Shown here one piece after another: positions 1 through 19,311 of a stretch of 64,000 nucleotides of DNA. Source of the DNA: Gammaproteobacteria bacterium (GTDB taxonomy: Bacteria; Pseudomonadota; Gammaproteobacteria; Eutrophobiales; Eutrophobiaceae); NCBI GenBank assembly GCA_965222155.1, contig CBDCTH010000012.1, forward strand, positions 1,536,001-1,600,000. The letters run 5' to 3'. Every line of letters starts with the position of its first letter. The stretch's first letter is position 1. The notes under the pieces are model-generated. The model did no database searches, was not told the DNA's origin, and was given only the letters and a program-made list of their open reading frames with translations. The translations under genes and the position numbers were made by a program.

Positions 1-1
1 G

Positions 2-2453: not shown

Positions 2454-2527
2454 GGGCGTTAGCGGGAACGGCTGCTCAGCACGTCGCGCGCTTGCCTTCG
2501 GTCTGCTGTTTCACATACGATAACAAG

Positions 2528-3778: not shown

Positions 3779-3803
3779 GGGGGATAGCTTTAAACCTGTC
3801 CCC
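3779..3803. repeat. Degenerate copy of the GGGGACAGATTTAAATCTGTCCCC palindrome
   Basis: gggggatagctttaaacctgtcccc directly after the stop codon at 3778. Confidence 0.7.
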
Positions 3804-3831
3804 ATTGAGGCCCCCTGTCTGCTATCCGGTA

Positions 3832-5060
3832 ATGAAGAAAGTTGTAGCAAACAGCATTACGGATAACGCCGAACGCCTACCACACAATCCGGCGCTTATC
3901 GACCGGGGCAGGACATATCCCTTCCTGCAGCAGGCAAATCGGGTCTGCCAGCGGTCGATGCGCTGGAGCAAGCCGGTTGCCGGCGCCGGGACCGGATTGC
4001 CGTTCTGTCCCGTAACTGTGCCGAGTACCTGGAAATCTACGGCGCCTGTGAGTTGGGCGGGTGTATTGCAGCGCCGGTCAACCATCGGCTGACGGCGGCC
4101 GAAATCAACCATATAGTCGGCGATACCACAGCGATGTTCTATAGTGCAGAATATCTGCAACTGGCCCACCACCTGCACGGTGCGGCCAGTTACATACAAC
4201 AGGAGTTTAACCCGGCTGTCATCTGGGACACCCTGCAAACGGAAGGCATTACCACCCTGCAACTGGTTCCGACCATGATCGAAATGCTGCTTGCCGATGA
4301 CTATGCAGCCAGTCGTAATCCGACCCGGGTGAAGACTATTTTCTATTCCACCGCGCCGATAAGGGAAGCATTATTGAGGAAGGCCCGGGCCGTATTCGGC
4401 CCGGTCTTTATCCAGCAATACGGTTCCACAGAGGGTGGTTCCGTATCGACCCTGACGAAGAACCAGCACCAGCCTGACGGAACTGGAGAACAGCAACGCC
4501 GCCTGTTGTCCGCCGGCCAGGTCTGTGACGGTGTGGAGATTAAGATCGTCAAGTCAGACGGGACCGTTGCCGATACCGGCGAGACGGGCGAGATTGTCGT
4601 GCGTCATCCCGATATCATGCTGGAATACTGGAACGATCCGAAAGTAACCGCTGCATCCATAAGGGACGGCTGGCTGGGCATGGGAGATATAGGGTACCTG
4701 GATGATCAGGGGTTTCTGTTCATTGTCGACCGTAAAAAGGACATGATTATCTCCGGCGGGGAGAATATCTACCCGCGGGAAGTCGAAATCGCATTGGAAC
4801 AGCACCATGCAGTCAAGCAATGTGCCGTGATCGGCATCCCTGACAAGCGCTGGGGTGAGGCAGTCTGCGCGTTCGTGGTGTTGTGTGCAGATTGTACCGC
4901 GCAGGAGTTGACGGACCACTGTCGTAAACACATAGCGAGCTATAAGAAACCGAAAGAACTCATGTTCGTGGAAGAACCACCCCGCCTGGCCACCGGCAAG
5001 GTCGACAAGGTCAGGCTGCGCGCACCCTACTGGCAGGAACGACAATCGCAAATAATCTGA
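3832..5060 (+). pseudogene. Acyl/aryl-CoA ligase (AMP-binding) pseudogene
   Basis: N-terminus MKKVVANSITDNAERLP shifts frame near 3950 into ..DRIAVLSRNCAEYLE..; YGSTE, GDIG and DRKKDMIISGGENIYP motifs are present but the YTSGTTG P-loop region is missing (internal deletion near 4165). Confidence 0.8.
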
Positions 5061-5098: not shown

Positions 5099-5830
5099 TT
5101 ATAAGGCCAGTGAACCCAGGCTGGCGCCGCCGCAGATGTACCAGGTTTGCCCGGTAATAAATCCGCTGTCTTCCTCGCATAAAAATTTGACTACGCGGCC
5201 GATGTCTTCCGGGGTTCCCAGGCGTTTGACCGGAACGCTCTGCGCGATCCTGCTCTTCTGTTCGCTGTCTTCCGGCACCAGTTCATGGAACATGTCCGTC
5301 ACGATGGGACCGGGAGCGACACAGTTTACGGTGATCCCGTCTTTAGCCAATTCCAGCGCCCAGGTGCGAACCATACCGATTTGACCGGCTTTGGTAGCGG
5401 CATAGTTTGTCCTGGTAACCAGCCCCAGTACGCCGCGGGATGATATGAGAATGATCCGGCCGTACTGTGCGCTGCGCATGGCCGGGATAAATTGTTGCGC
5501 CAGCGTGATGGCGCTACCCAGGTGCAGTTGGGTCAGGTAGTCCAGGTCCTCGAGTTTTACGTCTTCCAGTAAATCCGGACGGATCACTCCGGCATTATGA
5601 ATGAAGTCCGTTACCGCATGTTTATTCGCTATCTCCATGCCGACGTCCCGGGTTGCCTGCGGGTCAGCCAGGTCCGCGCTGTAATTGAGCAGACGTTCAC
5701 CAGAGAAGTCGGGAAGCTGCCGGGAGATATTGACGACCCGGTAACCACCGTCCAAAAAACGCCGGGTGATATCGGCCCCGATACCTCGGTTGCCACCTGT
5801 AACGACTACCACTTTATTATTATCTGTCAT
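5099..5830 (-). CDS. Short-chain dehydrogenase/reductase
   Basis: TGGNRGIG, NAG, YAATK motifs. Confidence 0.92.
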   Translation of the reverse strand: MTDNNKVVVVTGGNRGIGADITRRFLDGGYRVVNISRQLPDFSGERLLNYSADLADPQATRDVGMEIANKHAVTDFIHNAGVIRPDLLEDVKLEDLDYLTQLHLGSAITLAQQFIPAMRSAQYGRIILISSRGVLGLVTRTNYAATKAGQIGMVRTWALELAKDGITVNCVAPGPIVTDMFHELVPEDSEQKSRIAQSVPVKRLGTPEDIGRVVKFLCEEDSGFITGQTWYICGGASLGSLAL

Positions 5831-5850
5831 CTTTTATCTCTCTAAGTTAT

Positions 5851-5879
5851 CCATCATTCCGGCGCAAGCTGGAATCCAG
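5851..5879. repeat. REP-like palindrome (CNTCATTCCGGCGCAAGCNGGAATCCAG type)
   Basis: ccatcattccggcgcaagctggaatccag; same unit as inside the 206-bp MITEs. Confidence 0.75.
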
Positions 5880-5901
5880 CCAATACCGTCACGTTTTACT
5901 C

Positions 5902-6336
5902 CTACAGGAGCTCGCTGAATTCGACTGCCGGATCAGCATCCGGCGACGTAGCAAAAAAAACGACCTGACCGGATTTATCCGGCCTGTTGGCGATCCGCAC
6001 CCTACTCCCTGTGTGCAAGGAATCCGCAGCCAGGTATGCAAACAGAACAGGACCACAATCCAGTTTTATCATCCCTGTGTGTAAAGGCAATATATCCTTG
6101 AAAAACCGGTTGGTGCTGGCATGGGTTGTGGTCCAGGAAAGCACCGTGCCCAACGAACTGACTTGTTGCCATAGTAACGTGCTGGTTAAGCAGTGATGAC
6201 AGAACTCCTGCGGGGGATACTGAACCTCATCACACCTGCTACAGACCTGTAGCTTGAATAGCCCATCCCTGGCTGCCTGATTGACCTGCTGCCACAAGGA
6301 GGAGCGTTCAGCGGGGGGGGCTGATTGATTGTTCAT
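5902..6336 (-). CDS. DUF35 Zn-ribbon/OB-fold protein (thiolase partner)
   Basis: CSRC..YPPQEFCHHC Zn ribbon followed by GTVLSWT; overlaps the thiolase stop. Confidence 0.85.
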   Translation of the reverse strand: MNNQSAPPAERSSLWQQVNQAARDGLFKLQVCSRCDEVQYPPQEFCHHCLTSTLLWQQVSSLGTVLSWTTTHASTNRFFKDILPLHTGMIKLDCGPVLFAYLAADSLHTGSRVRIANRPDKSGQVVFFATSPDADPAVEFSELL

Positions 6337-7499
6337 TCAGTTCCCCTCCCCAGGATCACGGCACTGGCACATAAACATCGATCATAATTTACCATGCCAT
6401 AACCGCTGGCCATACCGGTCTTTGCCGCGGCGACCTGGTTGGGCAAACCGGTTGAGGTCAACTGGCGGATCGTCTCAACCGTTCCCAGGAACCCACCTGC
6501 GGCGCCGGCCTGACCCGCGGACAGTTGCCCGCCTCTGGTATTGTGAGGCAGACCCCCGCCGTTCCATGTTAACGGTTGGGTACGTACAAATTCCGCTGCC
6601 GCACCTTTATCACAAAACCCCAAGTCTTCCATCTGGATCATTGAAATGACCGGGTAATCATCGTAAGTCTGCAAAAAATCAATGTCACCGGGGCCAATGC
6701 CGGCCTGTTCATACATTTGATCACGATATAATAGCCAACCACCGCGAAAATGCACGTCATCTTCAAACCAGGCATTGTGTCTCTCCCCTGCTGCCAGCAT
6801 CCTGGCATAAGGAAGACGCAGGGATTCAGCCCGGTCAACCGTCATGACCAGGAAGCCGTCCGCGCCGGCAACGGGCATGACACAGTCGAACAGGTGCAAG
6901 GGTTCACTGATGGGGCGGGCGTTCAGGTAGTCATCCATCGATAGCGCAGTACTGAAGACAGCCGTGCCTGCTGCCAACGCGTTTTCCCTCTGGGCAATAC
7001 AGATACGGCCGAAATCTTCCCGCTCAGCCCCATATTTCTCCATATAGTTGCGGGTGATCATGGCGAAAACGGTATTGGGTCCGCCGGCGCAATAAGGATA
7101 GACGGCATCTGTTGAAAACCGGCTGAAATTTTTAACGAGGTTCACGAATGTATCGGCAGTGGCGGTATCGGCGCCGATACAGGCCACGATATCGGCATCG
7201 CCCGCCTGCACTGCCCGCGCCGCGCGCCGGGCGGCTACCGGGCCGCTGGCGCCTCCCATGGGTATCTGTTCCAGCCAGCCTGGCGAGATATCCAGGTATT
7301 CCGTCATGCTGATGACGCTGTCCGGCGCCAGGGTGAAGCTGGCGATGGCCAGGCCGTCAATGTTGTGTTTTTGCAATCCGGCTGTTTCAAGCATCCTTGC
7401 AAAGGCAGTACCGATAAACCAGGCAGCACTTCGTTCACTGCGCCGCACATAAGGCAAGCTGGTCGCGGCAACCAGCGCGACATCATTATAGGGCAGCAT
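6333..7499 (-). CDS. SCP-x-like thiolase-family protein
   Basis: PLHLFDCVMPVAGADG, YDDYP, NTRGGQLSAGQ motifs; MGGASG at the catalytic Cys position. Confidence 0.88.
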   Translation of the reverse strand: MLPYNDVALVAATSLPYVRRSERSAAWFIGTAFARMLETAGLQKHNIDGLAIASFTLAPDSVISMTEYLDISPGWLEQIPMGGASGPVAARRAARAVQAGDADIVACIGADTATADTFVNLVKNFSRFSTDAVYPYCAGGPNTVFAMITRNYMEKYGAEREDFGRICIAQRENALAAGTAVFSTALSMDDYLNARPISEPLHLFDCVMPVAGADGFLVMTVDRAESLRLPYARMLAAGERHNAWFEDDVHFRGGWLLYRDQMYEQAGIGPGDIDFLQTYDDYPVISMIQMEDLGFCDKGAAAEFVRTQPLTWNGGGLPHNTRGGQLSAGQAGAAGGFLGTVETIRQLTSTGLPNQVAAAKTGMASGYGMVNYDRCLCASAVILGRGTE

Positions 7500-9159
7500 C
7501 TTTTTTCCTGCGCTTGCGCTGTCTCAAGTCGACACAACTACCCTCTTCCACGAGTCTGTTGGCAAGGGTTTTGATTTCGCCACGCTGCAGCTTCTGTGAT
7601 GCAGTCATGGGCAACTCGGTTACGAACAGGTAATAAGCCGGAACCTTGTAGTAAATCAGGTGTTCAAGGCAGAAAGCGAATAAGGCATCTGCCACAGCTT
7701 CATCGGAAGCATATTCTCCCTGTGCGGCTTCACTCAGAATAATGCAAACGCCTACTTCTTCGCCGCGCATTTCATCATAAACAGGCGTTACCGCACAATT
7801 GGCGATTGCCGGGTGCTGGAACAGGATGTTTTCCACTTCCACTGCAGCGATATTTTCACCACTGCGCCGGATGATATTTTTACGGCGATCGACAAAATGA
7901 AAGGAACCGTCCTCACTGATGCGCACAACATCGCCGGTATGGAAATATCCACCATCCCATACCCTGGCAGTTTCCTCCGGGTTTTTATAGTAGCCGGAAA
8001 AGAATCCCTTGCGCGGGTTTTCCCCCCTGGCGCGGATCAATAACTCTCCCGGTTCGCCCGCTCCGACCTCTTCTCCCTGCTCATCCACGAGGCGATACTC
8101 GATGACCTCCGGCGCCCTGCCGATGCAGCGTGTTCCGATATGGCGCGGCTCCTTATTGGCGGTGATACAAACGTGAGTGCCGGTTTCCGTCATGGCCCAA
8201 CCCTCCACCAGGGGGAAACCAAAGCGCTGTTCGAAGCGTTGCAGGTGTTTCGGATCAACCCCCGCACCGAAACCAAATTTGACCTGTTTACCCAGGTTAT
8301 CATTCTCTGTTTCCGGCTGGTTCAATAAAATTGCCGGGATCACGCCCAGGTAGTGCAGGCAGGTGGCCCCGGTAGCGCGTACTGTGTCCCACCAGGTGGA
8401 AGCATGAAAACGGTCCAGCTGAATTATGCAACCGCCACTCATGATCATGGCCATCATGGAGCATAATGCATTCATATGCACCAACGGCAGAGGAGTCAGC
8501 ATTCGCTCCTCTCCATAAGTCAGCCGGCAGTAGCCGTCTATATCAGCGTACCAATCGCCCATGCAGGTAAAGTACTCATTGTTCAGCATGCAGCCCTTGG
8601 GTTTACCCGTTGTGCCGGAGGTATAAAGTACGGCGACCTCGGTATTTCTGTCAGGCGCTGCCGTTGCTGTTTCAAGGCTGCAAGGCGATAGCTGCGCCAT
8701 TGACACGGTGTCTGCGATTGGAATAGGAACAGGGGACAGATTTAAATCTGTCCCCTGTTCGGCTGTATCCTGACGGGCCAGGGCTGCCTGCACTTTCTCC
8801 CGGTAACAGGGCAAACACAGGACGAGACAGGCATCACTGTGGCTGATCACGTAGTTGATTTCACCGGGCAGGAAGCCGGAATTGACCGGTACGACGCTGA
8901 CCCCAAGCTTATTCAAGGCAAGAAAGTGCAGGAAAAAGTCGGCGCGATTGTCCAGCATGACGGCAATTCTATGGCCGTGCCCGTATCCGGCAGCAGCATA
9001 CTGTTCACTCAATGAATTGACGGCCTGGAGAGTCTGGCTATAGGTATAGTCAACCGGGCCTTGATGATACTCCCGGGTAGCCTGGTGCGGGATGTGCAGG
9101 AAGGCCTGTGTCGAGACGTTCCTCCCGGTTTCCAGAAATTTGTTGTACACGGTAGTCAT
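7486..9159 (-). CDS. Acyl/aryl-CoA ligase (CaiC-like)
   Basis: YTSGTTGKPKG, EGWAMTE, FHTGD, RRSGENI motifs. Confidence 0.92.
   Translation of the reverse strand: MTTVYNKFLETGRNVSTQAFLHIPHQATREYHQGPVDYTYSQTLQAVNSLSEQYAAAGYGHGHRIAVMLDNRADFFLHFLALNKLGVSVVPVNSGFLPGEINYVISHSDACLVLCLPCYREKVQAALARQDTAEQGTDLNLSPVPIPIADTVSMAQLSPCSLETATAAPDRNTEVAVLYTSGTTGKPKGCMLNNEYFTCMGDWYADIDGYCRLTYGEERMLTPLPLVHMNALCSMMAMIMSGGCIIQLDRFHASTWWDTVRATGATCLHYLGVIPAILLNQPETENDNLGKQVKFGFGAGVDPKHLQRFEQRFGFPLVEGWAMTETGTHVCITANKEPRHIGTRCIGRAPEVIEYRLVDEQGEEVGAGEPGELLIRARGENPRKGFFSGYYKNPEETARVWDGGYFHTGDVVRISEDGSFHFVDRRKNIIRRSGENIAAVEVENILFQHPAIANCAVTPVYDEMRGEEVGVCIILSEAAQGEYASDEAVADALFAFCLEHLIYYKVPAYYLFVTELPMTASQKLQRGEIKTLANRLVEEGSCVDLRQRKRRKKDAAL
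8727..8760. repeat. Perfect 34-bp palindrome inside the CoA ligase CDS
   Basis: gaacaggggacagatttaaatctgtcccctgttc; core identical to the intergenic palindrome at 2375-2400. Confidence 0.9.
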
Positions 9160-9187
9160 TTATACACAAAGTCTCTGACAGTATCGG

Positions 9188-9466
9188 CTATTGCGACCTG
9201 TTTTCATCCATAGGACAGTTCTCCGAGTACAGGGCAGCAGTAAGGATGAACAGGATGATGAGCAGCGCAATAGCGATGCCGATTGACACAACACTGCCTT
9301 CTACCAGGGGTGCACCCATGAATTCCGCTGCGTAAACACAGAGAAAATCGAACCCCGGCACCAGCGCGATCAGCACAATGATCAGCCTCCGGGACAGTCC
9401 GCCGTGAGTATGCCTGAATTTCAGATATGCGGCGGAGCTAATGGATTTAGGTCGTCCTGACGGCAT
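9188..9466 (-). CDS. Small membrane protein, DUF485/YjcH-like, possibly degenerate
   Basis: Two hydrophobic helices and YAAEFMGAPLVEGSVVSIGI, resembling DUF485; no actP partner follows. Confidence 0.55.
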   Translation of the reverse strand: MPSGRPKSISSAAYLKFRHTHGGLSRRLIIVLIALVPGFDFLCVYAAEFMGAPLVEGSVVSIGIAIALLIILFILTAALYSENCPMDENRSQ

Positions 9467-9967
9467 TTACAGGTAGATAAGAATGTTTTCCAGCGGCGCA
9501 TCACAGTTGAGCAGGTCTACACGCTTGCCGGCGATCCTGAATTCATTTCCCTCAATGCGCAACCGGTGATTGTAGGAACCGGCGAAAACATCCTGTTTTT
9601 CACGCCGATACTGCAACATGACAAAGCGCGAGTTGACGCTGCACTCTCCGCTGTCTGCATCAAAATTGTCCAGGATGATATTGCTTAGCAGGTGTACACT
9701 GCGCGGCTTGGGTTGCAGGGAAAATGCGTTCGGGTGTTTATAGCGCTTGATACGTACAGCCCTGAGCAGCCCGGTCTCATAGATCAGGGAGACATGGTTG
9801 TGCGGGTCCGGTTGGTCCGGAGCCGCCGGCACCCAGTATTCGGCGTCGTCCAGGTACAAAGCGTTCCATTCCTCCCAGCGCTGCTCATCCAGCAGGCGCG
9901 CTTCATGGTACAGGAACTGTTCAATCGATTTGATATCGGGCGGGTTGCCCGGTTGTTCATTCTGCAT
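9467..9967 (-). CDS. Aromatic ring-hydroxylating oxygenase beta subunit
   Basis: IEQFLYHEARLLDEQRWEEW...YWVP...KRVDLLNCD; start at ATG 9967. Confidence 0.92.
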   Translation of the reverse strand: MQNEQPGNPPDIKSIEQFLYHEARLLDEQRWEEWNALYLDDAEYWVPAAPDQPDPHNHVSLIYETGLLRAVRIKRYKHPNAFSLQPKPRSVHLLSNIILDNFDADSGECSVNSRFVMLQYRREKQDVFAGSYNHRLRIEGNEFRIAGKRVDLLNCDAPLENILIYL

Positions 9968-11294
9968 ACTGGGTATTGACCATATAGTTTTTCCAGGTCT
10001 GAAACTGGTGGCGAAAGACCATGTCAGACGTGCCTGCCGCATGCTTGGTCCCGTCTTCCTCTATCTCTTCCTTGCCCAGATAACGGTGTTGACTTACCCA
10101 TTCATTGCTATCCTGCGTCTGCAGGCCATATTGCAACCGGTGATAGGCTTCGTAGTCATCGGGACCAACCACGTTGGCATGGGAATTGATCAGGTTGCAA
10201 TAAGTGATGGAGCGTCGAAACAGTTCTTCCGGCGCCCCGACCTGCCTGAACACCCATGATTCGATAACGGTTTTATTCACGGCCACAGGTTTGACAACGC
10301 GAATCGAGGTGATTGCGCCCTTCAGGGTAAAGCTGGGATAAACCACGGTATTGTGGCGGTTTAGCGCGAGGATTTCCCGCGCCTTCTGCTCTCCGTATTT
10401 CTCGACCAGGGAGTCCATATAGCCGGGAATGGGTGAATAGGCTGAATGGATACTGAACTTGCCCCCGGTGACACTGTGTCCGTAGTTCCAGGCTGTGAGT
10501 CCCATCTTTTCAAAGAACTCGTAGTTGTTGGTGAACGGCGCCAGCATTTCAAGTTCGAACGGTACCGGGTCACCCTCTTTCAGACGTTCATCAAATACCC
10601 GTTTGGCTGTACCGCTGGAGGACTGATGAACGACCATCGGATGCATGGCGTCATTCAGGTTTTCCACAAACATCTTCCAGTTGGAATCATGCAGGTAACG
10701 GAAACAACCACCGGCAATTTCGATTCGCCCTTCCGGGGATCGTTCCACCAGGTTGTCAATGGATACCGCGGCGCCACTCAACCAGGTTTTCAAATCAGGT
10801 CCTTGTGCAGCCAGGCTGGCGAATACCAGACCGTGGTAACTGTCCACCCGCGGCACCCGCTGCATATTGGATTCCGCCTTGCCCTTGCCGAACCCGGAGT
10901 CGCCGTAGGCTTCTTCCCGGGGGATATGGATTAAGGTACCGTCGGTATCGAATACATAACCATGGTAGCTGCAGCGCAACTGCTGCATGTGGCCGCAACT
11001 CTCACCAACCACCTGGGCGCCCTTGTGGCTGCAGCGGTTGAATAACACGTAAACCTTTCCGTCACTGTGCCGGATCATGATGACCGCCTGCCTGCCGATG
11101 CTGGTAGCGAAATAGTCGCCCGGCTGTTTTACCTGGCTGTCGTGACCCACGTAGATCCAGGCCTTTTTCCAGATACGTTCCATCTCCAGGTCAAAGATTT
11201 CGGGATCGGTATAGACATTTCTGTGGACGCAATCCTCCCTGATCAAGCCAGCCAGCCGCTCATTGGTGTAATGTGTCATCTTCGATTCTCCCAT
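9957..11294 (-). CDS. Rieske aromatic ring-hydroxylating oxygenase alpha subunit
   Basis: CSH...CSYH Rieske motif, NWKMFVENLNDAMHPMVVH mononuclear Fe motif, PDD. Confidence 0.95.
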   Translation of the reverse strand: MGESKMTHYTNERLAGLIREDCVHRNVYTDPEIFDLEMERIWKKAWIYVGHDSQVKQPGDYFATSIGRQAVIMIRHSDGKVYVLFNRCSHKGAQVVGESCGHMQQLRCSYHGYVFDTDGTLIHIPREEAYGDSGFGKGKAESNMQRVPRVDSYHGLVFASLAAQGPDLKTWLSGAAVSIDNLVERSPEGRIEIAGGCFRYLHDSNWKMFVENLNDAMHPMVVHQSSSGTAKRVFDERLKEGDPVPFELEMLAPFTNNYEFFEKMGLTAWNYGHSVTGGKFSIHSAYSPIPGYMDSLVEKYGEQKAREILALNRHNTVVYPSFTLKGAITSIRVVKPVAVNKTVIESWVFRQVGAPEELFRRSITYCNLINSHANVVGPDDYEAYHRLQYGLQTQDSNEWVSQHRYLGKEEIEEDGTKHAAGTSDMVFRHQFQTWKNYMVNTQYAE

Positions 11295-11505
11295 TCATTC
11301 CGTTACATTCCGGGTAAATTATAACGCATGATCAATCCAATAACACCTCGCCGCGGGCTATGGCAATAGCCGGCATTTCCTGTGAATTAGGAGGTTTAGC
11401 GTTACTTCTGTGATCAGCCTCGTCCCGGTTTTCCTTGGCAGCATTCAGTTCGGCTGCGACTTGTTCCATTTAAGTCAGAGTCTAAATGAACCTATTTGCG
11501 TTATA

Positions 11506-11898
11506 TTATTCCGGCACTACCGCCGTCGTTTCTATTTCCACCTTGACCCGGTCCTCAATCAGGGCAGAGACTTGCACCATGGCCATCGCCGGGTAGTTCC
11601 TGCCCATGATTTCCCGGTAGACACGCCCAATGTCCTTTACCGAGGACAGATATTCCTGTTTATCCAGGATATACCAGGTCATCCTGGTTACATGCTCAGG
11701 TCCCGCATTCGCTTCGCCCAATACTGCGATAGTATTTGTCAGAGCCTGGCGGATCTGTTCAACGAGACTGTCGCTATGAATAATTTTGTTCTTATCCCAG
11801 CCAATCTGTCCGGCAATAAACACCATCCTGCCTTGTGCGACGATTCCGTTGGAATAGCCTTCAGGTCGGGGCCAATCCGGTGGTTGTAATATCCGCAT
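11506..11898 (-). CDS. RidA/YjgF family enamine deaminase (AbmF-like)
   Basis: LQPPDWPRPEGYSNGI, GQIGW, KVEIETTA. Confidence 0.9.
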   Translation of the reverse strand: MRILQPPDWPRPEGYSNGIVAQGRMVFIAGQIGWDKNKIIHSDSLVEQIRQALTNTIAVLGEANAGPEHVTRMTWYILDKQEYLSSVKDIGRVYREIMGRNYPAMAMVQVSALIEDRVKVEIETTAVVPE

Positions 11899-12078
11899 AA
11901 GTGATAGGTTATCTGATTAATGATTTTTTCAGGCCGTCAGTTCTACGATTGCATTATAGCCGCAATAGTATTCACATGTCTGCTGATATGATATAGTTCC
12001 TGCCTGTAATCCACCTACAAGGGTGAAGCCTTCACCCGGCATTTGACATCATTCGTTTCATATTGAGGAAAGCACCTT

Positions 12079-13812
12079 ATGAAGCCTTATTTTGAGAACA
12101 TGCAACGATTCGGCAAAGAACTGAAGCAAGGCCGGATCAAGCGTGCGACTCCAAGCATGGAACAGTTGAAGCAGGTTCAAGCGGGAATTGAAGAGCGTAA
12201 GAAAGACGTCGAGAACGCAGGTTTTTCTACGGAGCAAATCAACAAGCGCGGCGCCATGACCGTCTGGCAACGCCTGGAATATTTGATCGACCCAGGAACC
12301 TGGCGTCCATTGCACAGCCTTTACAATCCGATGGATAACGCAAACGGAGCAACCAACGTGGTCGACGGCCTTGCCAAGGTCGCCGGCCGCTGGGCGGTAG
12401 TGATCGGTTTTGATAACAAGGTGCTGGCCGGAGCCTGGCTCCCCGGCCAGTCGGATAATATACTGCGTGTTACCAACCTCGCAAAACGACTTCATATCCC
12501 GCTGATCTGGCTGGTCAACTGCAGCGGAGTAAAATTGGATGAACAGGAAAAGTTCTATGCCAACCGGCGTGGGTCCGGCACACCTTTTTATCGCAACGCA
12601 GAATTGAATCAACTGGGTATCCCGGTTCTAGCCGGTATTTACGGCACAAATCCTGCCGGTGGTGGTTATCACGGCATCAGTCCCACCATACTTCTTGCCC
12701 ATAAAGATGCGAACATGGCCATAGGCGGTGTCGGCATCGTCTCGGGCATGTCGCCAAGAGGGGGCTTCAGCGCGGAGATGCTTGAAGAACTGGTGGAAAA
12801 AACCCGCACGTTCAGCGCCAAACCTCCAGGCCGGGTTGAGACTCATTACCACGAAACCGGATTTTTTACGGCAGTCTACGAGGAAGAAACTGAAGTGCTT
12901 GACGGCATCAAGGAATATATGGAAGCCATACCTGCATACAAACCTCATTTTTTCCAGGTTGCCGAACCCGCCGCGCCGGCATATCCGGCTGACGACCTGT
13001 ATTACCTGTTACCCCATAACCAGAAAGAAGTGTATTCCTTTGACGATATACTATCCCGATTGACGGACGCCAGTGAACACATGGAATTCCGCCCGGACTA
13101 CGGGCCCGAGGTGTATACAGGACTGTGCAGATTTGACGGACTTGTGATTGGCTGTATAGGAAATCGTTCCGGCTACCTCGGTAAAGGTTATCCGGAATAT
13201 GCCGACTATCCCGGTATGGGAGGGAAACTGTATCGTCAGGGCTTGATTAAAATGAACGAATTCGTCACCCATTGCGGGCGCGACCGCATCCCCGTCATCT
13301 GGTTTCAGGATACCTCCGGTATCGACGTCGGCGATCTGGCGGAAAAAGCCGAGTTGCTTGGGCTGGGTCAAGGCTTAATTTATTCCATACAGCAAACCGA
13401 CCTGCCAATGATGCTTGTCGTCTTGCGCAAGGGGACAGCCGCAGCTCACTACCTGATGGGTGGGCCGACCGCAAACCAACACAACGCGTTTACGCTGGGC
13501 ACGCCGGCTACGGAGATTGCGGTCATGCATGGTGAGACCGCAGCAGTTGCCATGTACTCCAGACGTGCGGTCAAGGAAAAGGATGCCGGCAGGCCGCTGG
13601 ATGAGGTCGCCGATAAAATGAACAACCTGGCGGAGCAATACCGGAAACACTCCAGTCCTGAGTACTGTGCGCGTTATGGGCTGGTTGATGAGGTCGTTGA
13701 CCTGGCGGAATTAAGAAATTATCTTACGGCTTTTGCCGGCGCAGCTTATCAGAACCCGCGTTCCATCTGCCCCAAACACCAGTTGCTGCTGCCAAGAATT
13801 ATAAAGGGATAA
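12079..13812 (+). CDS. gcdA: Glutaconyl-CoA decarboxylase carboxyltransferase alpha subunit
   Basis: VNCSGVKLDEQEKFYANRRGSGTPF, GTNPAGGGYH, QDTSGIDVG, RKGTAAAHY and C-terminal YQNPRSICP, characteristic of GcdA. Confidence 0.9.
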   Translation: MKPYFENMQRFGKELKQGRIKRATPSMEQLKQVQAGIEERKKDVENAGFSTEQINKRGAMTVWQRLEYLIDPGTWRPLHSLYNPMDNANGATNVVDGLAKVAGRWAVVIGFDNKVLAGAWLPGQSDNILRVTNLAKRLHIPLIWLVNCSGVKLDEQEKFYANRRGSGTPFYRNAELNQLGIPVLAGIYGTNPAGGGYHGISPTILLAHKDANMAIGGVGIVSGMSPRGGFSAEMLEELVEKTRTFSAKPPGRVETHYHETGFFTAVYEEETEVLDGIKEYMEAIPAYKPHFFQVAEPAAPAYPADDLYYLLPHNQKEVYSFDDILSRLTDASEHMEFRPDYGPEVYTGLCRFDGLVIGCIGNRSGYLGKGYPEYADYPGMGGKLYRQGLIKMNEFVTHCGRDRIPVIWFQDTSGIDVGDLAEKAELLGLGQGLIYSIQQTDLPMMLVVLRKGTAAAHYLMGGPTANQHNAFTLGTPATEIAVMHGETAAVAMYSRRAVKEKDAGRPLDEVADKMNNLAEQYRKHSSPEYCARYGLVDEVVDLAELRNYLTAFAGAAYQNPRSICPKHQLLLPRIIKG

Positions 13813-13854
13813 GGAACCTCTGACAGGTCCCGGGTGGACTTGTTCAGTGCTTAC
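13813..13854. repeat. Short internally deleted copy of the GGAACCTCTGA MITE family
   Basis: taa-ggaacctctgac...ggacttgttcagtgcttac begins at the gcdA stop codon; both ends match the element at 38290-38464. Confidence 0.6.
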
Positions 13855-13880
13855 ACAACATTACTGGTAAAATCAGGTTT

Positions 13881-14009
13881 ATGGAACAGGCTTTGGTAGT
13901 TTTCTTCAATGGTCTCGGCGGCGTATTCGCCGGCATGGCAATGTTGTATCTTGCCATCAGGCTACTCGCCCTGATGGCCGATAAGCAGACCGGGGACAAG
14001 GAAGAATAA
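13881..14009 (+). CDS. gcdD: OadG/GcdD-like small membrane subunit (42 aa; not in the ORF track)
   Basis: MEQALVVFFNGLGGVFAGMAMLYLAIRLLALMADKQTGDKEE, single TM; TAATG overlap with the beta subunit start. Confidence 0.78.
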   Translation: MEQALVVFFNGLGGVFAGMAMLYLAIRLLALMADKQTGDKEE

Positions 14010-15112
14010 TGGCGTTTATCCAGAACATGGGAATTTTTTCCATTACGCCCGAATTGCTGGTGATGTGGCTGATAGGTCTGACACTGATCTACCTGGCTGT
14101 TACCAGGCAGTATGAACCACTGTTGTTGCTGCCGATAGGATTTGGCATTCTTCTGGCCAACCTGCCGCTGACCCAACTAATGGAGCCCGGCGCTGGTTTG
14201 CTTTGGCGCTTCTATCACTATGGGATCGAATGGCGCATCATTCCACCCCTGATCTTCCTGGGCCTTGGCGCACTGACCGATTTCGGCCCGTTACTGTCGC
14301 GACCATTGCTTATCTTTCTGGGCGCCGGTGCACAGGTGGGAGTTTACCTTACTTTTTTTCTGGCCTACGGGATGGGATTCAACCTGGAAGACGCTGCCAC
14401 CATCAGCATTATCGGCGGTGCGGACGGACCGACGACCATCTTTCTTGCGGCCGAACTGGCGCCGCACCTGCTTGGCGCCTGCGCCGTTGCCGCCTATTCC
14501 TATATGGCCCTGGTGCCTATTATTCAACCCCCTATCATGCGTCTGCTGACAACAGAGAATGAACGGAAAATCCGTATGCATAAAGGTCGCAAGGTCAGTT
14601 CCAGGGAGAAACTGTTGTTTCCGATAACAGCTGCCCTGGTGATCATATTGATGGTGCCGGCTTCGGCGCCCCTGATATCCATGTTCATGTTGGGCAACCT
14701 GTTCCGCGAATCCAAGGTAGTCGAGCGCCTGACCGACGCCGCCCAGAATTCCCTGATGAATATTGCGACCATATTCCTCGGCATCAGCGTAGGCGCCACC
14801 ATGAGCGCAGACAGTTTTTTGCGCGCCGATGTCATTCTTATTTTCTTCCTGGGCCTGTTCGCGTTCATGATCAGTACGGCAAGCGGCATACTGCTGGCTA
14901 AGCTGCTGAATATTTTTATCACGAATAAAATCAATCCCCTGGTCGGCGCCGCCGGCGTATCTGCCGTGCCTATGGCAGCCCGGGTTGTTCAGAAAATCGG
15001 TGCTGAGGCCGATAAAAAGAATTATTTACTTATGTTTGCCATGGGCCCCAATATCGCCGGTGTTATCGGCACCGTCATTGCGGCCGGTATATTTTTAACG
15101 ATGTTGCAATAA
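14009..15112 (+). CDS. gcdB: Na+-translocating decarboxylase beta subunit
   Basis: EPLLLLPIGFG, IIGGADGPT, AYSYMALVP, GVSAVPMAARV, GPNIAGVIG (OadB/GcdB motifs). Confidence 0.95.
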   Translation: MAFIQNMGIFSITPELLVMWLIGLTLIYLAVTRQYEPLLLLPIGFGILLANLPLTQLMEPGAGLLWRFYHYGIEWRIIPPLIFLGLGALTDFGPLLSRPLLIFLGAGAQVGVYLTFFLAYGMGFNLEDAATISIIGGADGPTTIFLAAELAPHLLGACAVAAYSYMALVPIIQPPIMRLLTTENERKIRMHKGRKVSSREKLLFPITAALVIILMVPASAPLISMFMLGNLFRESKVVERLTDAAQNSLMNIATIFLGISVGATMSADSFLRADVILIFFLGLFAFMISTASGILLAKLLNIFITNKINPLVGAAGVSAVPMAARVVQKIGAEADKKNYLLMFAMGPNIAGVIGTVIAAGIFLTMLQ

Positions 15113-15128
15113 ACTCAGGAGAAAAGTT

Positions 15129-15350
15129 ATGGCGGAAGACGTGTTGGCGCCCTTGTCAGGCACCATCTGGAAGATCACGGCAGCGCCGGGTGAAGTCGTA
15201 GAAGAAGATGATGAGGTGCTGATCATTGAGGCATTGAAGATGGAAACACCGATATTTGCACCTTGTGACGGCAAGGTGAAAGAGATTTACGTGAAGGAAG
15301 GCGATACGGTGGATGAAGATCAATCCTTGATGTCTATTGAGCCTGAATAA
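15129..15350 (+). CDS. gcdC: Biotin carboxyl carrier subunit
   Basis: APLSGTIWK...EALKMET biotinyl domain. Confidence 0.88.
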   Translation: MAEDVLAPLSGTIWKITAAPGEVVEEDDEVLIIEALKMETPIFAPCDGKVKEIYVKEGDTVDEDQSLMSIEPE

Positions 15351-15363
15351 TTGAGAGGTAACC

Positions 15364-16521
15364 ATGTTTTTTGAATTAACCGAAGAGCAGCGTCTGGTAC
15401 AAGACACTGCGCGACGATTTGCCTTGGAAGATATCGCACCTACGCTTGAAGAAGAAGAAAAAAACCATGAGTTCAAACTGGAACGCGTGGCTAAAATGGG
15501 CGAGCTGGGGTTTTTTTCGTGTGTGCTGCCGGAACAACTGGATGGAAACGGCATGGGTTTTCTGGAATCCGTACTCATGGCAGAACAGATTGGCCAGGTA
15601 TCGGCCTCCTGGCGACTGCCCTTCAACATGCAGAATCTTGGCGCCCCGTTATCGGTGGCCAAATTCGGTACGGACGAGCAGAAAGAGAAATACATTCCCG
15701 GCTGGATCAACGGCACGAAAATGGGATTCTTCGCCATGACCGAACCGGACACCGGCTCCGACGTCTCCAGCATGAAGACCCATGCCATCGACAGGGGCGA
15801 TCATTATGAACTGCATGGCAGTAAAATATGGATATCCAACGCCCACGTGGGCGATGCCGGCCTGTTGTATGCCTATACGGACAGGGCCAAAGGCAATAAA
15901 GGCATCAGTTGCTTTATCATCGAACCCAAGACCCTGGAAGGTTGTACTGCCCGGCCCATCGAAACCAAACTGGGACTGCATTGTTCTCCGACCGGTGAGT
16001 TTGTCTTCGAGGGCGCGCAGATTCCCAAAAGCGCCCGGCTCGGCGAACTCAATAACGGTTTCAAGATGTGCATGTGGCAATTGAACAATACCCGCATCGG
16101 TTGTGCCGCCGGCGCGCTTGGCGTGGCCGGCGGCGCATTGCAACTGGCCATCGACTATGCAAACGAGCGCAAACAATTCGGCAAGTCTATTTCACGTCAC
16201 CAGATGATCCAGTCGCAGATAGCCGACATGGTATTGGAACATCAGGCCGCGCAACTGCTGGTATACAAGGCTGCCTGGTTAAAGGATCAGGGGAAACCCA
16301 ACCAGTATGAGACATCCGTCGCCAAACTGGCCGCGTCCGAAGCTGCCGTACACGCGGCAAACGAGTGTATGAAAATCTTCGGTTCCTACGGCTATTCCAC
16401 GGAATATCCGGCTGAGCGGTTCTATCGCGACGCCAAGTCCCTGCAGATAGTGGAAGGGACTTCAAATATACAGAAAATGATCATAGCGGGCATGGCCTGT
16501 GGTCATACCTCCAACCGCTGA
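15364..16521 (+). CDS. Glutaryl-CoA dehydrogenase, non-decarboxylating type
   Basis: Acyl-CoA dehydrogenase fold with RxxxNM (WRLPFNM), YAYTD, GYSTEYP and VEG (Val rather than Tyr before the catalytic Glu), recalled from the Desulfococcus multivorans enzyme; adjacent to gcd. Confidence 0.8.
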   Translation: MFFELTEEQRLVQDTARRFALEDIAPTLEEEEKNHEFKLERVAKMGELGFFSCVLPEQLDGNGMGFLESVLMAEQIGQVSASWRLPFNMQNLGAPLSVAKFGTDEQKEKYIPGWINGTKMGFFAMTEPDTGSDVSSMKTHAIDRGDHYELHGSKIWISNAHVGDAGLLYAYTDRAKGNKGISCFIIEPKTLEGCTARPIETKLGLHCSPTGEFVFEGAQIPKSARLGELNNGFKMCMWQLNNTRIGCAAGALGVAGGALQLAIDYANERKQFGKSISRHQMIQSQIADMVLEHQAAQLLVYKAAWLKDQGKPNQYETSVAKLAASEAAVHAANECMKIFGSYGYSTEYPAERFYRDAKSLQIVEGTSNIQKMIIAGMACGHTSNR

Positions 16522-16531
16522 CTACGGAACA

Positions 16532-17296
16532 ATGGCTGAACTCAGTGATAAACACGTGGTGGTTACCGGCGGTGGCAGGGGTATAGGCGCGGCAATAGCC
16601 GCACAAATGAATCGGCTGGGAGCCAGGATTACCCTGATGGGTCGAACGGAAAGCTCGTTACGTTCCCAGGCCGAACGACTGGACCATGCATCCGGTGTGC
16701 AGGTAGACGTGACTAATGAAGATGACGTACAAGCAGGGTTTGCTGAAGCTGTAGCCCGGTTTGGCCCTGTTGACATCCTGGTGAATAACGCCGGCACTGC
16801 CAACAGCAGTCCATTCAAACGCATCGATAGCGATAGCTGGGGACGAGCGATAGCAGTTAACCTGAACGGTGTGTTTTATTGCAGCAAGCAGGTGCTGGAC
16901 GGAATGCTGGAGGCTGACTGGGGCCGTATCATCAATATAGCCAGCACTGCCGGGCTTACCGGCTATGCTTATGTTACGGCTTATTGCGCGGCCAAACACG
17001 GTGTAATCGGCTTGACACGCTCCCTGGCTCTGGAACTGTCCAGGACCGGCATAACCGTCAATGCGATCTGTCCGGGCTATACTAAAACGGACTTGATTAC
17101 TGACGCAATAACCAGAATTATGGATAAAACGGGCATGTCGCTGGAAGATGCCGAAGCGCGCCTCAAGTCAGCAAATCCGCAACATCGGTTTATCGAACCG
17201 GAAGAAGTGGCAACGGCGGTAGCCTGGTTATGTCAGCCCGGCAGCGAATCTATCACCGGCCAATCCATCCCCATCGCCGGTGGAGAAGTCATGTGA
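16532..17296 (+). CDS. SDR, 3-hydroxyacyl-CoA dehydrogenase-like (AbmB-like)
   Basis: TGGGRGIG, NNAG, STAGLTGYAYVTAYCAAKHG. Confidence 0.88.
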   Translation: MAELSDKHVVVTGGGRGIGAAIAAQMNRLGARITLMGRTESSLRSQAERLDHASGVQVDVTNEDDVQAGFAEAVARFGPVDILVNNAGTANSSPFKRIDSDSWGRAIAVNLNGVFYCSKQVLDGMLEADWGRIINIASTAGLTGYAYVTAYCAAKHGVIGLTRSLALELSRTGITVNAICPGYTKTDLITDAITRIMDKTGMSLEDAEARLKSANPQHRFIEPEEVATAVAWLCQPGSESITGQSIPIAGGEVM

Positions 17297-17317
17297 CAAA
17301 ACCAGGGAAATAAATCA

Positions 17318-18127
17318 ATGAATATGCAAGGATTTAAACCGAAACATTTTGACTGGTCATGTTCCGGAGGCATAGCCAAGTTGACCTTGAACAGGCCGGA
17401 GAGAAAAAACCCGCTGACTTTCGATTCCTATGCGGAACTGCGTGATACATTCCGTCATTTAACCGGCGCTGATGATGTCAAGGTCGTTATCATCACCGGC
17501 GCCGGAGGGAACTTCTGTTCCGGTGGCGACGTTCACGACATCATAGGCCCGCTGACGCAAATGGATATGAAGAGCCTGCTTGAATTTACCCGCATGACCG
17601 GAGACCTCATCAAGGCCATGATCCACTGCCCGCAACCCGTTATTGCTGCGGTAGACGGCATTTGTGTGGGCGCCGGCGCCGCTATCGCCATGGCGAGCGA
17701 TATCCGCATCGCTACCCCGGAAGCAACAACCGCTTTTTTGTTTACCCGCGTCGGCCTGGCCGGCTGCGACATGGGAGCTTGCGCCTTACTGCCCCGGATT
17801 ATCGGCCAGGGTCGCGCTGCCGAATTACTGTATACCGGCCGCTCCATGGCGGCGGAAGAAGGGATGCGCTGGGGATTTTATAACACCCTCTCATGCGCCG
17901 ATTCGTTACTCGCTGATGCAGACAAGCTGGCTGAGCAGTTGCTCAGAGGGCCGACTTTTGCCCACGGTATCACCAAGACCATGCTGCGTCAGGAATGGAA
18001 TATGTCCCTTGAACAGGCTATTGAGGCAGAAGCCCAGGCCCAGGCAATCTGCATGCAAACCGAAGATTTTCGCCGTGCGTATACTGCATTTACCAACAAG
18101 GAAAAGCCTGTATTCGAGGGTGACTGA
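17318..18127 (+). CDS. Enoyl-CoA hydratase/isomerase (AbmC-like)
   Basis: [33 protein letters not shown]. Confidence 0.9.
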
Positions 18128-19290
18128 TGGCGGACCGCAGCTACCTGGGCTGGCCTTTTTTTACCCCGGAACACAGGCAGTTAGCCGGGGAACTGGATGA
18201 GTGGGCCGGACGGCAATTGAATCATCCACTGCCGGATGATGTCGATAACGCCTGCAAAGAGTTGCTTGCCCGATTAGCCGAGGCCGGTTGGCTCAATTAT
18301 TCAGCGCCCGCTCCCGGAGATGTTTCCACCCTCCCCCTGGATGTGAGATCCTTGTGTCTCATTCGTGATATCCTGGCGCGCCATTCCGGTCTGGCGGATT
18401 TTGTTTTCGCAATGCAGGGTTTGGGCAGCGGAGCGATTACCTTATTTGGCAACCATACACAAAAAAATGATTATCTGCCCGCGGTCCGCAGTGGTAAAAA
18501 AATTGCCGCTTTTGCCCTGTCTGAGTCGGAAGCCGGTTCCGACGTTGTGGCCCTCGCCACCAACGCCGTTTGCGCTGGGGATGAGTACATAATCAATGGC
18601 GAGAAAACCTGGATTTCAAACGGAGGCATCGCCGATTATTATACCTTGTTCGTCAGGACCGGGGAGCAACCCGGCGCCCGCGGACTGAGCGCCTTCATTG
18701 TTGATGCCGACAGTGAGGGACTCGAAATAGCCGAACGTATCGATGTGATTGCGCCCCATCCACTGGCGCGTATCAGGTTCAAGGACTGCAGGGTAGCGAA
18801 AACAAAACTGCTGGGCATGCCGGGGGACGGTTTTAAAATTGCCATGACCACGCTGGATATCTTTCGTTCAAGCGTCGGCGCGGCCGCCCTGGGTTTTGCC
18901 CGACGCGCGCTGGATGAAACAGTGAACCATGCCGCTACGCGGCAACTGTTCGGCATGGCGCTGGCTGATATGCAAATGACCCAGGCCAGGATCGCCGACA
19001 TGGCTGTGGCCATTGATGCGAGCGCCCTGTTGGTTTACCGGGCCGCCTGGACTAAGGACAGCGGCGCTGCGCGGGTGACGCGGGAAGCGGCAATGGCTAA
19101 ATTGTACGCGACCGAATCCGCCCAGGAGGTTATCGACCAGGCCGTGCAATTATTTGGAGGGCGCGGCGTAACCCGCGGCGAAAAAGTGGAAGAACTGTAC
19201 AGGGAAATCCGCGCGTTGCGCATCTACGAAGGCGCATCCGAGATACAAAAACTGATCATAGCCCGCCAGACCCTGGATAATGCAGGTTGA
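18127..19290 (+). CDS. Acyl-CoA dehydrogenase (AbmD-like)
   Basis: [33 protein letters not shown]. Confidence 0.9.
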
Positions 19291-19311
19291 TATGATCATT
19301 TCCGTCTTCCT

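Follow-up and report, generated by a model that had tools for sequence, protein, structure and literature searches.

Iad-, abm- and gcd-type gene modules side by side in an uncultured gammaproteobacterium, and deletion of an AbmA-like gene from the locus

We analyzed a stretch of 64,000 nt (hereafter the window) of contig CBDCTH010000012.1, from the genome of a gammaproteobacterium of the family Eutrophobiaceae (assembly GCA_965222155.1). Two divergent gene runs between positions 5099 and 19290 bring together genes resembling the iad genes for indole-3-acetate breakdown, the abm genes of the aerobic 2-aminobenzoyl-CoA pathway, and a gcd–acd cassette of the kind that oxidizes glutaryl-CoA with Na+ export. 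Our preferred reading, held with moderate confidence, is that the locus is a composite catabolic island of three known modules, that these probably make up one route from auxin to crotonyl-CoA in intact relatives, and that the route is cut in the present genome. Positions are those of the window; L numbers denote related loci and G numbers genomes, G000 being the window's own.

Gene content and organization of the locus

Genes were called from a table of open reading frames (ORFs) combined with Pfam and NCBIfam profile scans of the window proteins. Both the ORFs and their families match the two divergent runs described in an earlier, sequence-only reading of this DNA; the families named there are present, although the list omitted a DUF485 gene, the relic of an AbmA-like gene, a damaged CoA ligase, and a MtaB gene.

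The minus-strand run starts, in its own direction, with a RidA-family enamine/imine deaminase that is abmF-like by position (11506–11898; Pfam Ribonuc_L-PSP, 82.3 bits). It continues through a 129-bp relic, the final 43 codons of an AbmA-like gene for a fused flavin adenine dinucleotide (FAD) monooxygenase and old yellow enzyme (OYE) (11335–11463), into the Rieske alpha subunit IadD (9957–11294) and beta subunit IadE (9467–10042). These are followed by a DUF485 membrane protein of 92 aa (9188–9466; Pfam DUF485, 29.7 bits), an AMP-forming, IadF-like acyl-CoA ligase (7486–9159; Pfam AMP-binding, 211 bits), and an IadG-like thiolase of the SCP-x/lipid-transfer type (6333–7499; Pfam Thiolase_C_1, 102.8 bits). 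Last come its partner, an IadH-like DUF35 protein with a Zn ribbon and an OB fold (5902–6336; Pfam zf-ChsH2 and OB_ChsH2_C), and a short-chain dehydrogenase/reductase (SDR) that is IadJ-like by position (5099–5830; Pfam adh_short_C2, 141.7 bits).

A divergent intergenic region, read from the sequence (11899–12078), separates RidA from the plus-strand run. This comprises gcdA (12079–13812), a small hydrophobic GcdD-like ORF (13881–14009), gcdB (14009–15112), gcdC (15129–15350), acd (15364–16521), and three genes that are abmB-, abmC- and abmD-like by position: a second SDR (SDR2, 16499–17296; Pfam adh_short, 208.7 bits), an enoyl-CoA hydratase (ECH, 17318–18127; NF006107, 487.9 bits, cut-off 330), and a second acyl-CoA dehydrogenase (ACAD2, 18127–19290; Pfam ACAD domains). 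Spacing along this run goes from −23 bp, the overlap of the acd and SDR2 ORFs, up to +68 bp; acd, SDR2, ECH and ACAD2 either overlap or stand no more than 21 bp from one another, and the MtaB gene begins 21 bp past ACAD2.

The contig measures 3.5 Mb, and the assembly (4.55 Mb, 12 contigs) is rated 100% complete and 7.28% contaminated; the nearest related loci all come from records titled uncultured Gammaproteobacteria metagenome-assembled genomes (MAGs). Two further public runs (X2 and X3) provide contigs that together tile the entire stretch, with at least 99% likeness for most pieces, one covering 8731–11384 (X2) and another 11441–19306. This tiling, and the fact that gcdA neighbors an IadD-like gene in 16 of the 80 related loci, show that the juxtaposition of iad and gcd genes is no product of this assembly alone, an outcome that the sequence-only reading had left open. 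In the DNA runs, position 5782 seems to be joined to 12357, and 16796 to 17059; both joints were set aside as probably foreign, the shorter side being only 22–23 letters.

A promoter and terminator scan of 11250–12150 found no terminator and two promoter-like sites, where 1.3 are expected; the spacer between RidA and gcdA holds one minus-strand promoter-like site, which is not above chance. We rejected AATTATAACGCA as a shared operator-like motif of both operons, since with up to two mismatches it has three matches in the window where 5.3 are expected. Its local copies both flank the AbmA relic and none lies in the spacer between RidA and gcdA. The RNA runs X19 and X20 gave only short contigs of a related strain (95–99% likeness), on RidA, gcdA, gcdB, SDR2, ECH, ACAD2 and the thiolase, with the IadD/E part uncovered, and such RNA-library contigs are no proof of transcription.

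The Rieske oxygenase and its iad partner genes

Compared with all PDB chains, the alpha subunit scored 450.8 bits with 9o71_A (E 5e-134) and 449.7 bits with 7yls_B, the best other oxygenase reaching 155 bits. The beta subunit scored 130.2 bits with the IadE chains 7yls_A, 8h2t and 9o71, and 55.2 bits with the next chain. 9O71 is the crystal structure of IadDE from Variovorax paradoxus CL014 (PMC12633357); 7YLS and 8H2T have the same beta-chain sequence, which fits a remark in that preprint on an earlier, near-identical structure. Pocket and metal residues were mapped by hand, by pairwise alignment onto the residue list of PMC10374108. All nine auxin-pocket residues (N210, L211, H216, H221, F251, H311, K322, R329 and Y362) are identical in the window protein, and so are D377, the Fe ligands, and the four Rieske ligands; the identical residues listed for window IadD are N212, L213, H218, H223, F254, H314, K325, R332, Y365, D380, C88, H90, C108 and H111. 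Overall identity to Variovorax IadD is ~52%, counted from the alignment. The scores and the unchanged residues place the alpha subunit with IadD, as the sequence-only reading needed it to be, and on these alignments the two Rieske subunits are true orthologues of IadD and IadE.

The Variovorax pathway leads from indole-3-acetate to anthranilate, its end product, through mono-oxygenation by IadCDE, dehydrogenation of the hydrated product by IadJ, formation of a CoA ester by IadF and removal of the side chain by IadG and IadH, with IadI acting later (PMC12633357). Genes like iadF, G, H and J are all present and collinear at the window locus, as judged by family and position rather than by direct comparison with the Variovorax IadF–J sequences. 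Neighbors of IadD-like genes were counted in the best 80 of 416 related loci from species-representative genomes, among them records titled Burkholderiales, Steroidobacteraceae, Sphingomonadales, Kordiimonas and others. A CoA ligase stands beside the gene in 58 of these loci, an SDR in 56, a thiolase in 48 and a DUF35 protein in 46, with all four in 38 and at least one in 68; the resemblance of the minus-strand order to iadD-E-F-G-H, pointed out in the sequence-only reading, is upheld by this recurrence and by the collinearity of the four genes. A cyclase-type IadI homologue occurs in 22 of the 80 loci, none of them among the 16 with gcdA. Neither IadA/B nor ABC-transporter genes were found in the window locus, and a MarR repressor gene, present in L001 and other relatives, has been deleted from it.

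Five further IadD-like Rieske alpha paralogues are encoded in the genome (50, 45, 44, 37 and 30% identity). The closest, with no beta subunit detected, lies 12 kb before the window (G000:C12:1523107–1524387; L091:7089–8462) and adjoins an OYE-like protein and the light and heavy chains of a methylamine dehydrogenase. One 415-aa protein of a MAG titled Burkholderiaceae (L038:14872–16119) combines the DUF35 domains with an SDR domain, a fusion that may explain why Variovorax IadH is annotated as an alcohol dehydrogenase.

The gcd–acd cassette

GcdA, the carboxyltransferase of glutaconyl-CoA decarboxylase, matches 1pix_A with 745.6 bits over residues 2–576 and 3gf3_A with 712 bits, other carboxyltransferases giving at most 125. 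GcdB, the beta subunit of a Na+-translocating decarboxylase, scores 513.2 bits on Pfam OAD_beta (PF03977) and 486.1 bits on TIGR01109 (cut-off 190.6). The 73-aa GcdC matches biotin-carrier models with 56–71 bits and holds EALKMET, which we take to be the biotin-carrying motif. Three of the four subunits proposed in the sequence-only reading as gcdA-D-B-C are therefore genuine; the fourth, a GcdD-like ORF of 42 aa, is in place and kept there in relatives at 46–90% identity, but has no family-model match.

Acd is a probable glutaryl-CoA dehydrogenase, closest to the non-decarboxylating Desulfococcus type. Its best NCBIfam model is NF045552, of that type (427.3 bits; next model 349.9), and its best PDB chain is 3mpi_A (339.6 bits). 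Aligned with 3MPI, it has Arg opposite R87, Val before the catalytic Glu (VEG), and Gly opposite A80. We presume that the Arg opposite R87, which would face the distal carboxylate, and the Val instead of Tyr before Glu are marks of the non-decarboxylating type. NF045552 is the top model for none of the four model-matching ACAD paralogues of the genome (at most 315 bits), and three more are unmatched at E <= 1e-60. The gene adjoins gcdC in all family loci examined except L191 (in G444, where the stretch fetched around the locus has no acd or gcdC match), and the five genes gcdADBC-acd move as a unit across the family genomes.

The classical GcdH of L093, used as a query, has no match above 33% identity in this genome, whereas a sister genus has one of 71%. 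The ACAD paralogues L086, L087 and L089 are likewise at most 33% identical to classical GcdH, and L088 and L090 were rejected as a hidden classical GcdH because their PDB matches are not glutaryl-CoA dehydrogenases. As no classical GcdH was matched and, of the ACADs examined, Acd alone has NF045552 as its top model, acd-gcdADBC is the only glutaryl-CoA route found, and it appears to be the sole one of this genome.

The host encodes a haem-copper oxidase (COX1, 527 bits), which together with the Rieske paralogues identifies it as an oxygen user. NqrA had no match in the genome; should this absence hold, the genome, which encodes several Na+/solute symporters, would have few primary Na+ pumps, Gcd among them. 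The combination of a non-decarboxylating dehydrogenase with a Na+-pumping decarboxylase has been assigned to obligate anaerobes (PMC5852087). The label "anaerobe-type" given to the cassette in the sequence-only reading agrees with that textbook view, but GcdA proteins of 75–80% identity are numerous in metagenomes, some in MAGs named Woeseiaceae or Pseudomonadales.

The abm genes and the loss of their AbmA-like partner

In L001, which is 93% identical, a MarR gene and a gene for a 794-aa fusion of FAD monooxygenase and OYE reductase (L001:7571–9955) stand between RidA and IadD. The fusion protein scores 1039.7 bits on NF006101, under the cut-off of 1078. Searched against the window's own genome it gave two matches only: an unrelated OYE protein and the 43-codon relic, which corresponds to residues 752–794 at 74% identity and lies between IadD and RidA. 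DNA alignments to L001 and L004 place a deletion of ~2.9–3.1 kb, comprising MarR and the AbmA-like gene, at 11457–11519. This loss interrupts, in the window genome, the single route that the sequence-only reading proposed.

Two further deletions appear in alignments to L001, L004 and L025. One, of ~1.64–1.68 kb at 9161–9228, has removed the gene that follows DUF485 in L001 (L001:11944–13767), an ActP-like Na+/solute symporter of the SSF family (702 bits on PRK09395); the X2 contig spanning 8731–11384 bridges the junction. The other, of 314–330 bp near 4120–4156, lies inside a second CoA ligase, a PRK06187-type acyl-CoA ligase of which a plus-strand remnant persists at approximately 3805–5060. 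In a tblastn search, the full-length relative (L001:18194–19846, 551 aa) was recovered in pieces 29–75, 77–161 and 248–551. Residues ~162–247, a stretch holding TSGTTGNPKG in L001, have gone by in-frame loss, and near 3952 the remnant is also frameshifted in this assembly. The X2 and X3 contigs have one more G after 3952, which abolishes the frameshift; the difference may be one between strains or an indel of the assembly. A duplicate of the stretch 2492–4700, comprising the NRAMP gene and two thirds of the damaged ligase piece, counted from its start, lies 1.57 Mb off, at G000:C12:3114372–3116599, with 97–99% amino-acid identity.

An orthologue of AbmA is kept in 15 of the 23 genomes of the genus and absent from 8, the window genome included. 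L012, whose IadD is 94% identical, shares the losses described above, and it has neither the relic nor DUF485 nor any part of the second ligase; in L020 a different AbmA relic persists (residues 582–658). Some relatives lack more, SDR2 being absent from L025 and all abm genes from G459. A 16-nt inverted repeat (11313–11328 and 11497–11512, 81% complementary) brackets the relic in the window; in L012, as in a contig from the RNA library of a related strain, the relic is absent and the sequence is joined close to both repeat arms. In G444, of the same genus, an AbmA orthologue lies 430 kb from the iad–gcd locus (G444:C1:3188649–3191024).

A full-length relative of the L001 flavoenzyme was found in 55 of 400 other genomes of the phylum, at 57 places, around each of which ~20 kb was taken (4 of the 57 are shortened by contig ends). 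Beside these places stand ACAD2 at 45 (56–65% identity), ECH at 45 (63–76%), SDR2 at 44, MarR at 45, RidA at 37, some CoA ligase at 31, and gcdA at none. These counts show that SDR2, ECH, ACAD2 and RidA of the window belong to a conserved AbmA cluster, and the likening of the four to abm genes in the sequence-only reading gains from their recurrence at 37–45 of the 57 places. We assume that they correspond to abmB, C, D and F. The iad and abm genes occur together in 14 of the 80 IadD loci (10 of this clade and 4 of other lineages), and also in L153 and L173 of the AbmA set.

The ligase typical of abm clusters, as in L160, is of the benzoate-CoA-ligase type (TIGR02262, 367.6 bits). The second CoA ligase of the window was considered as an anthranilate-CoA ligase and rejected, being of PRK06187 type and 29% identical to the L160 ligase. 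The OYE-like gene and the 50%-identical Rieske paralogue in L091 gained no support as a stand-in for AbmA: the match takes in just a part of the OYE domain (residues 556–732 of AbmA, 29–35% identity), and methylamine-dehydrogenase genes lie next to it.

Linkage of the modules and glutaryl-CoA as an end point

GcdA was found in none of the 400 other phylum genomes (E <= 1e-100) and in 34 of 125 other genomes of the family, including all 22 others of the genus. When the 126 family genomes are cross-tabulated, with IadD orthologues taken at 71% identity or above, 29 have both genes, 6 only gcdA, 7 only IadD, and 84 neither. In 25 of the 29, gcdA and IadD share a contig, at distances from 92 bp to 8.7 kb; the remaining 4 have them on separate contigs. 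The link between iad and gcd is strong within the family, yet the modules are separable, and each also occurs without the other.

Classical GcdH genes stand at, or within 5 kb of, iad or abm clusters at eight places in other genomes. In L093 (titled Burkholderiales) the order IadI-AbmA-SDR2-ACAD2-RidA-GcdH lies on one strand, with 754 bits for GcdH on 3GNC. In L047/G005 (titled Kordiimonas) GcdH and AbmA share a strand, 68 bp apart, and both diverge from SDR2-MarR-ECH-ACAD2-RidA-IadF-G-J-D-E. L126 has SDR2-ECH-ACAD2-RidA-GcdH, the top ten PDB chains for the last being all glutaryl-CoA dehydrogenases; L143 has AbmA-ECH-ACAD2-RidA-GcdH, and in L152 GcdH is divergent from AbmA, 182 bp apart. Two places are in the window's own family: L018 (= G416), with GcdH-MarR-IadD-IadE, and, more loosely, G417 (L186), where 2.3 kb holding fragments of unrelated genes separate GcdH from IadD. 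The association is loose also in L139, with GcdH 4.7 kb off on the opposite strand. The four GcdH-bearing genomes of the phylum sample belong to four different families, and by a rough estimate, made with no control, chance would account for ~0.2 such cases per 57 places, taking one gene in a genome of 4–6 Mb.

The cassette acd-gcdADBC stands in this family where GcdH stands in others. The recurrence of classical GcdH at iad and abm clusters supports glutaryl-CoA as the end product of the abm branch (C7 to C5 plus C2), support that is good but not decisive. The end point named in the sequence-only reading accordingly gains from these eight places, while the chemistry that would lead from the AbmA product to glutaryl-CoA is deduced. 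In the texts consulted, the aerobic 2-aminobenzoyl-CoA pathway is followed up to its first non-aromatic product, and a review leaves the steps past it to "enzymes of beta-oxidation" (PMC4539516).

Selection and recombination

Ratios of nonsynonymous to synonymous substitution (dN/dS) were computed between the window and L012, both of which are without AbmA, and as synonymous divergence (dS) is only ~0.1 this is a weak test of decay. Values are 0.046–0.092 for gcdA, gcdB, gcdC and acd (gcdA 0.046) and 0.075–0.099 for IadD, E, G and J (IadD 0.075, thiolase 0.08, SDR 0.10), with 0.167 for IadF and 0.43 for DUF35. Among the abm genes they are 0.116 for ACAD2, 0.229 for SDR2, 0.350 for ECH and 0.282 for RidA; the neighbors MtaB and NRAMP have 0.242 and 0.317. 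The remaining genes of the island are under purifying selection, and the orphaned abm genes are not visibly decaying.

Divergence from L012 is unequal along the locus, dS being 0.34–0.76 in the iad genes (DUF35 0.13) and 0.06–0.19 in the plus-strand gcd and abm genes (12079–20601). This inequality between 5099–11294 and 12079–20601 indicates that the two halves have different histories, and the iad block has probably been exchanged by recombination within the genus.

A proposed route and its alternatives

In intact relatives such as L001, where the modules are joined by the AbmA-like enzyme, MarR and the Na+/solute symporter, the island would work as follows. The ActP-like carrier with DUF485 may take up an aryl-acetate together with Na+. 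By homology to Variovorax, IadDE with an unlinked reductase, and IadJ, would oxidize the pyrrole ring of indole-3-acetate, IadF would form the thioester, and IadG/IadH would release acetyl-CoA, leading toward anthranilate. The anthranilate-level product would then be brought to 2-aminobenzoyl-CoA, and the AbmA-like flavoenzyme, again by homology, would dearomatize it. RidA could take off the amino group and SDR2, ECH and ACAD2 open the ring to give glutaryl-CoA and acetyl-CoA. Acd is predicted to convert glutaryl-CoA to glutaconyl-CoA, and GcdADBC to carry this on to crotonyl-CoA with export of Na+. In the window genome the symporter, AbmA and MarR are gone and the route is cut between anthranilate and the beta-oxidation-like steps, so that two uncoupled units seem likeliest here, an auxin-transforming upper pathway and a glutaryl-CoA route.

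A number of observations weigh against this composite route. Several concern missing or imperfectly matched enzymes. The Pfam and NCBIfam scans found no reductase domain in the locus for an FMN-type reductase like IadC (three NAD_binding_1 proteins are encoded elsewhere in the genome, none in the window). The locus also contains no cyclase-type amidase like IadI, a 35%-identical cyclase homologue lying 1.6 Mb away, and no 2-aminobenzoate-CoA ligase of the benzoate-CoA-ligase type. The AbmA-like protein of the relatives is likened to Azoarcus AbmA by architecture, and NF006101, for which it falls just below cut-off, is named by NCBI salicylyl-CoA 5-hydroxylase/oxidoreductase. Acd lies below the NF045552 cut-off of 470, and its 3mpi_A score exceeds that of the butyryl-CoA dehydrogenase 4l1f (315) by just 25 bits. 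Others concern linkage. Only 4 of the 57 AbmA places in the phylum sample have a GcdH gene within 8.8 kb. In G446 (L003), one of the four split cases, at least 7.5 kb of other DNA lies upstream of AbmA, and in L009, also of the close clade, no gcd gene occurs within 10 kb upstream of IadD. The cassette stands alone in G409 and G410, which have no IadD orthologue, and 7 of the 126 family genomes have iad genes without gcdA. AbmA is absent from 12 of the 29 family genomes with iad and gcd, which an AbmA-dependent link cannot explain, and some genomes, among them G459, G434 and G529, are devoid of abm genes while retaining iad and gcd-acd. Adjacency of iad and gcd, finally, is seen only in this family, whose members, being kin, are not independent, and may go back to a single event.

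Part of this evidence would suit an arrangement of independent neighbors, in which acd-gcdADBC is a general glutaryl-CoA cassette, serving for example lysine or dicarboxylate breakdown, that took over from GcdH in this lineage, landed once beside iad and abm, and has been kept there by synteny with no metabolic link to them. The solitary cassettes of G409 and G410, the genomes with iad but not gcdA, the restriction of the adjacency to one family, and the count of 0 of 57 AbmA places with gcdA all fit such a history; so does the strong purifying selection on the cassette where the abm genes are gone, and as the apparent sole glutaryl-CoA route it would have a housekeeping role regardless. We nevertheless think it unlikely, given that classical GcdH stands in or beside iad or abm clusters in the unrelated lineages L047, L093, L126, L143, L152 and L018, that acd overlaps SDR2 and runs into ECH and ACAD2 as if co-transcribed with the abm genes, and that 25 of the 29 genomes with both modules keep them within 8.7 kb.

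The persistence of the orphaned abm genes raises a different question, namely whether the route still works in the window genome without AbmA, another enzyme or entry compound feeding RidA, SDR2, ECH and ACAD2. Their intact frames and dN/dS of 0.12–0.35, much like the 0.24 of MtaB, speak for it, as do the retention of gcd-acd and iad in the 8 of 23 genus genomes that miss AbmA and the supply of five more IadD-like paralogues and stand-alone OYE proteins. We rate it lower still: no replacement candidate was identified, the OYE-like gene 12 kb upstream matching AbmA only over residues 556–732 (29–35%); the losses of SDR2 in L025 and of all abm genes in G459 look like ongoing erosion; and at dS ~0.1 relaxed selection is hard to see. 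The least probable reading, and a very improbable one, is the intact, co-regulated route from indole or anthranilate to glutaryl-CoA that the sequence-only reading placed in the window itself. All the gene families it named are present and IadD is an orthologue; as a working whole it conflicts with an AbmA-like enzyme reduced to 43 codons, no copy of which was found elsewhere in the 4.55-Mb assembly, with the deletion of MarR and the symporter, with the lack of a ligase of the benzoate-CoA-ligase type, and with the damage to the second ligase.

The composite island, joined in relatives and cut here, remains our preferred explanation. More tentatively, and with clearly less confidence, we consider that the family as a whole may break down auxin through 2-aminobenzoyl-CoA to glutaryl-CoA and draw a Na+ gradient from a cassette that has displaced GcdH, and that an AbmA-independent link between indole compounds and glutaryl-CoA may exist besides. 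The latter is suggested by the many genomes that keep iad and gcd-acd, often with abmBCD and RidA, after AbmA has been lost. The Na+ gradient might perhaps drive the cluster's own Na+-coupled symporter.

Comparison with known systems

The window locus has the same IadD pocket and metal residues as the iad system of Variovorax paradoxus CL014 and likewise possesses IadE (PMC12633357, PMC10374108, PMC9613470), and with the iad-like loci of Burkholderiales it has the order ligase, thiolase, DUF35, SDR in common, MarR being found in its close relatives. Unlike Variovorax, it is without IadC, IadI, IadA/B, the ABC-transporter genes and MarR; its relatives use DUF485 and the ActP-like symporter instead of an ABC system, and the bacterium that carries it does not come from roots but is a gammaproteobacterium of marine type, as yet uncultured. 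Its DUF35 protein, in contrast to that of L038, is not fused to the SDR. An unchanged auxin pocket in gammaproteobacterial MAGs so far from root bacteria raises the question of what role indole-3-acetate or its analogues play in their habitat.

With the abm genes of Azoarcus evansii (PMC4539516) the locus shares the companion SDR, ECH, ACAD and RidA, and its relatives have a FAD-monooxygenase/OYE fusion of 794 aa with the right architecture; it differs in that the flavoenzyme and the benzoate-CoA-ligase-type ligase are missing from the window genome, and in that its abm genes adjoin gcd-acd and are shared out between two divergent operons. In Aromatoleum evansii and A. aromaticum, the anaerobic iaa pathway (PMC9613470) follows the same concept, from auxin via a 2-aminobenzoyl compound into a CoA-thioester pathway. 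It is, however, oxygen independent and presumably made up of unrelated genes, whereas here the attack would be by a Rieske oxygenase.

The cassette has GcdA, GcdB and GcdC in common with the Gcd of Acidaminococcus fermentans (1PIX) and Clostridium symbiosum (3GF3), beside a small ORF that may be GcdD, and the dehydrogenase of Desulfococcus multivorans (3MPI) is nearest to Acd, which is below the family cut-off and has Gly for Ala80. Unlike the anaerobes with this pair, the window host has a haem-copper oxidase, many Rieske oxygenases and no NqrA match, and its cassette is joined to oxygen-dependent aromatic catabolism. A pair taught as a trait of obligate anaerobes is here the only glutaryl-CoA route found, wired to an oxygenase pathway that depends on O2.

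We found no paper linking iad, abm and gcd modules, weak evidence given that the literature searched is thin in subscription journals. Each module is known; what is new to us is their union, together with the substitution, at the same place, of a Na+-pumping pair for GcdH in a lineage that respires oxygen, the indication from genome comparison that the aerobic 2-aminobenzoyl-CoA pathway ends in glutaryl-CoA, and the recurrent loss of its central enzyme. The recurring glutaryl-CoA-oxidizing genes at abm clusters, GcdH or acd-gcdADBC, provide a concrete, testable end point for that pathway, and should the broader, tentative reading given above be true, its lower half would be settled. The 8 of 23 genus genomes that have lost AbmA offer a natural experiment that shows what the island can do without.

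Sequence flanking the island

The left edge of the window (1–1894) cuts through an open frame that has Ca-binding repeats of the serralysin/RTX type and continues upstream (L091:13923–19733), where a 1936-aa ORF lies just outside in the genome. The G+C content of the frame is 0.71–0.73, compared with ~0.55 elsewhere.

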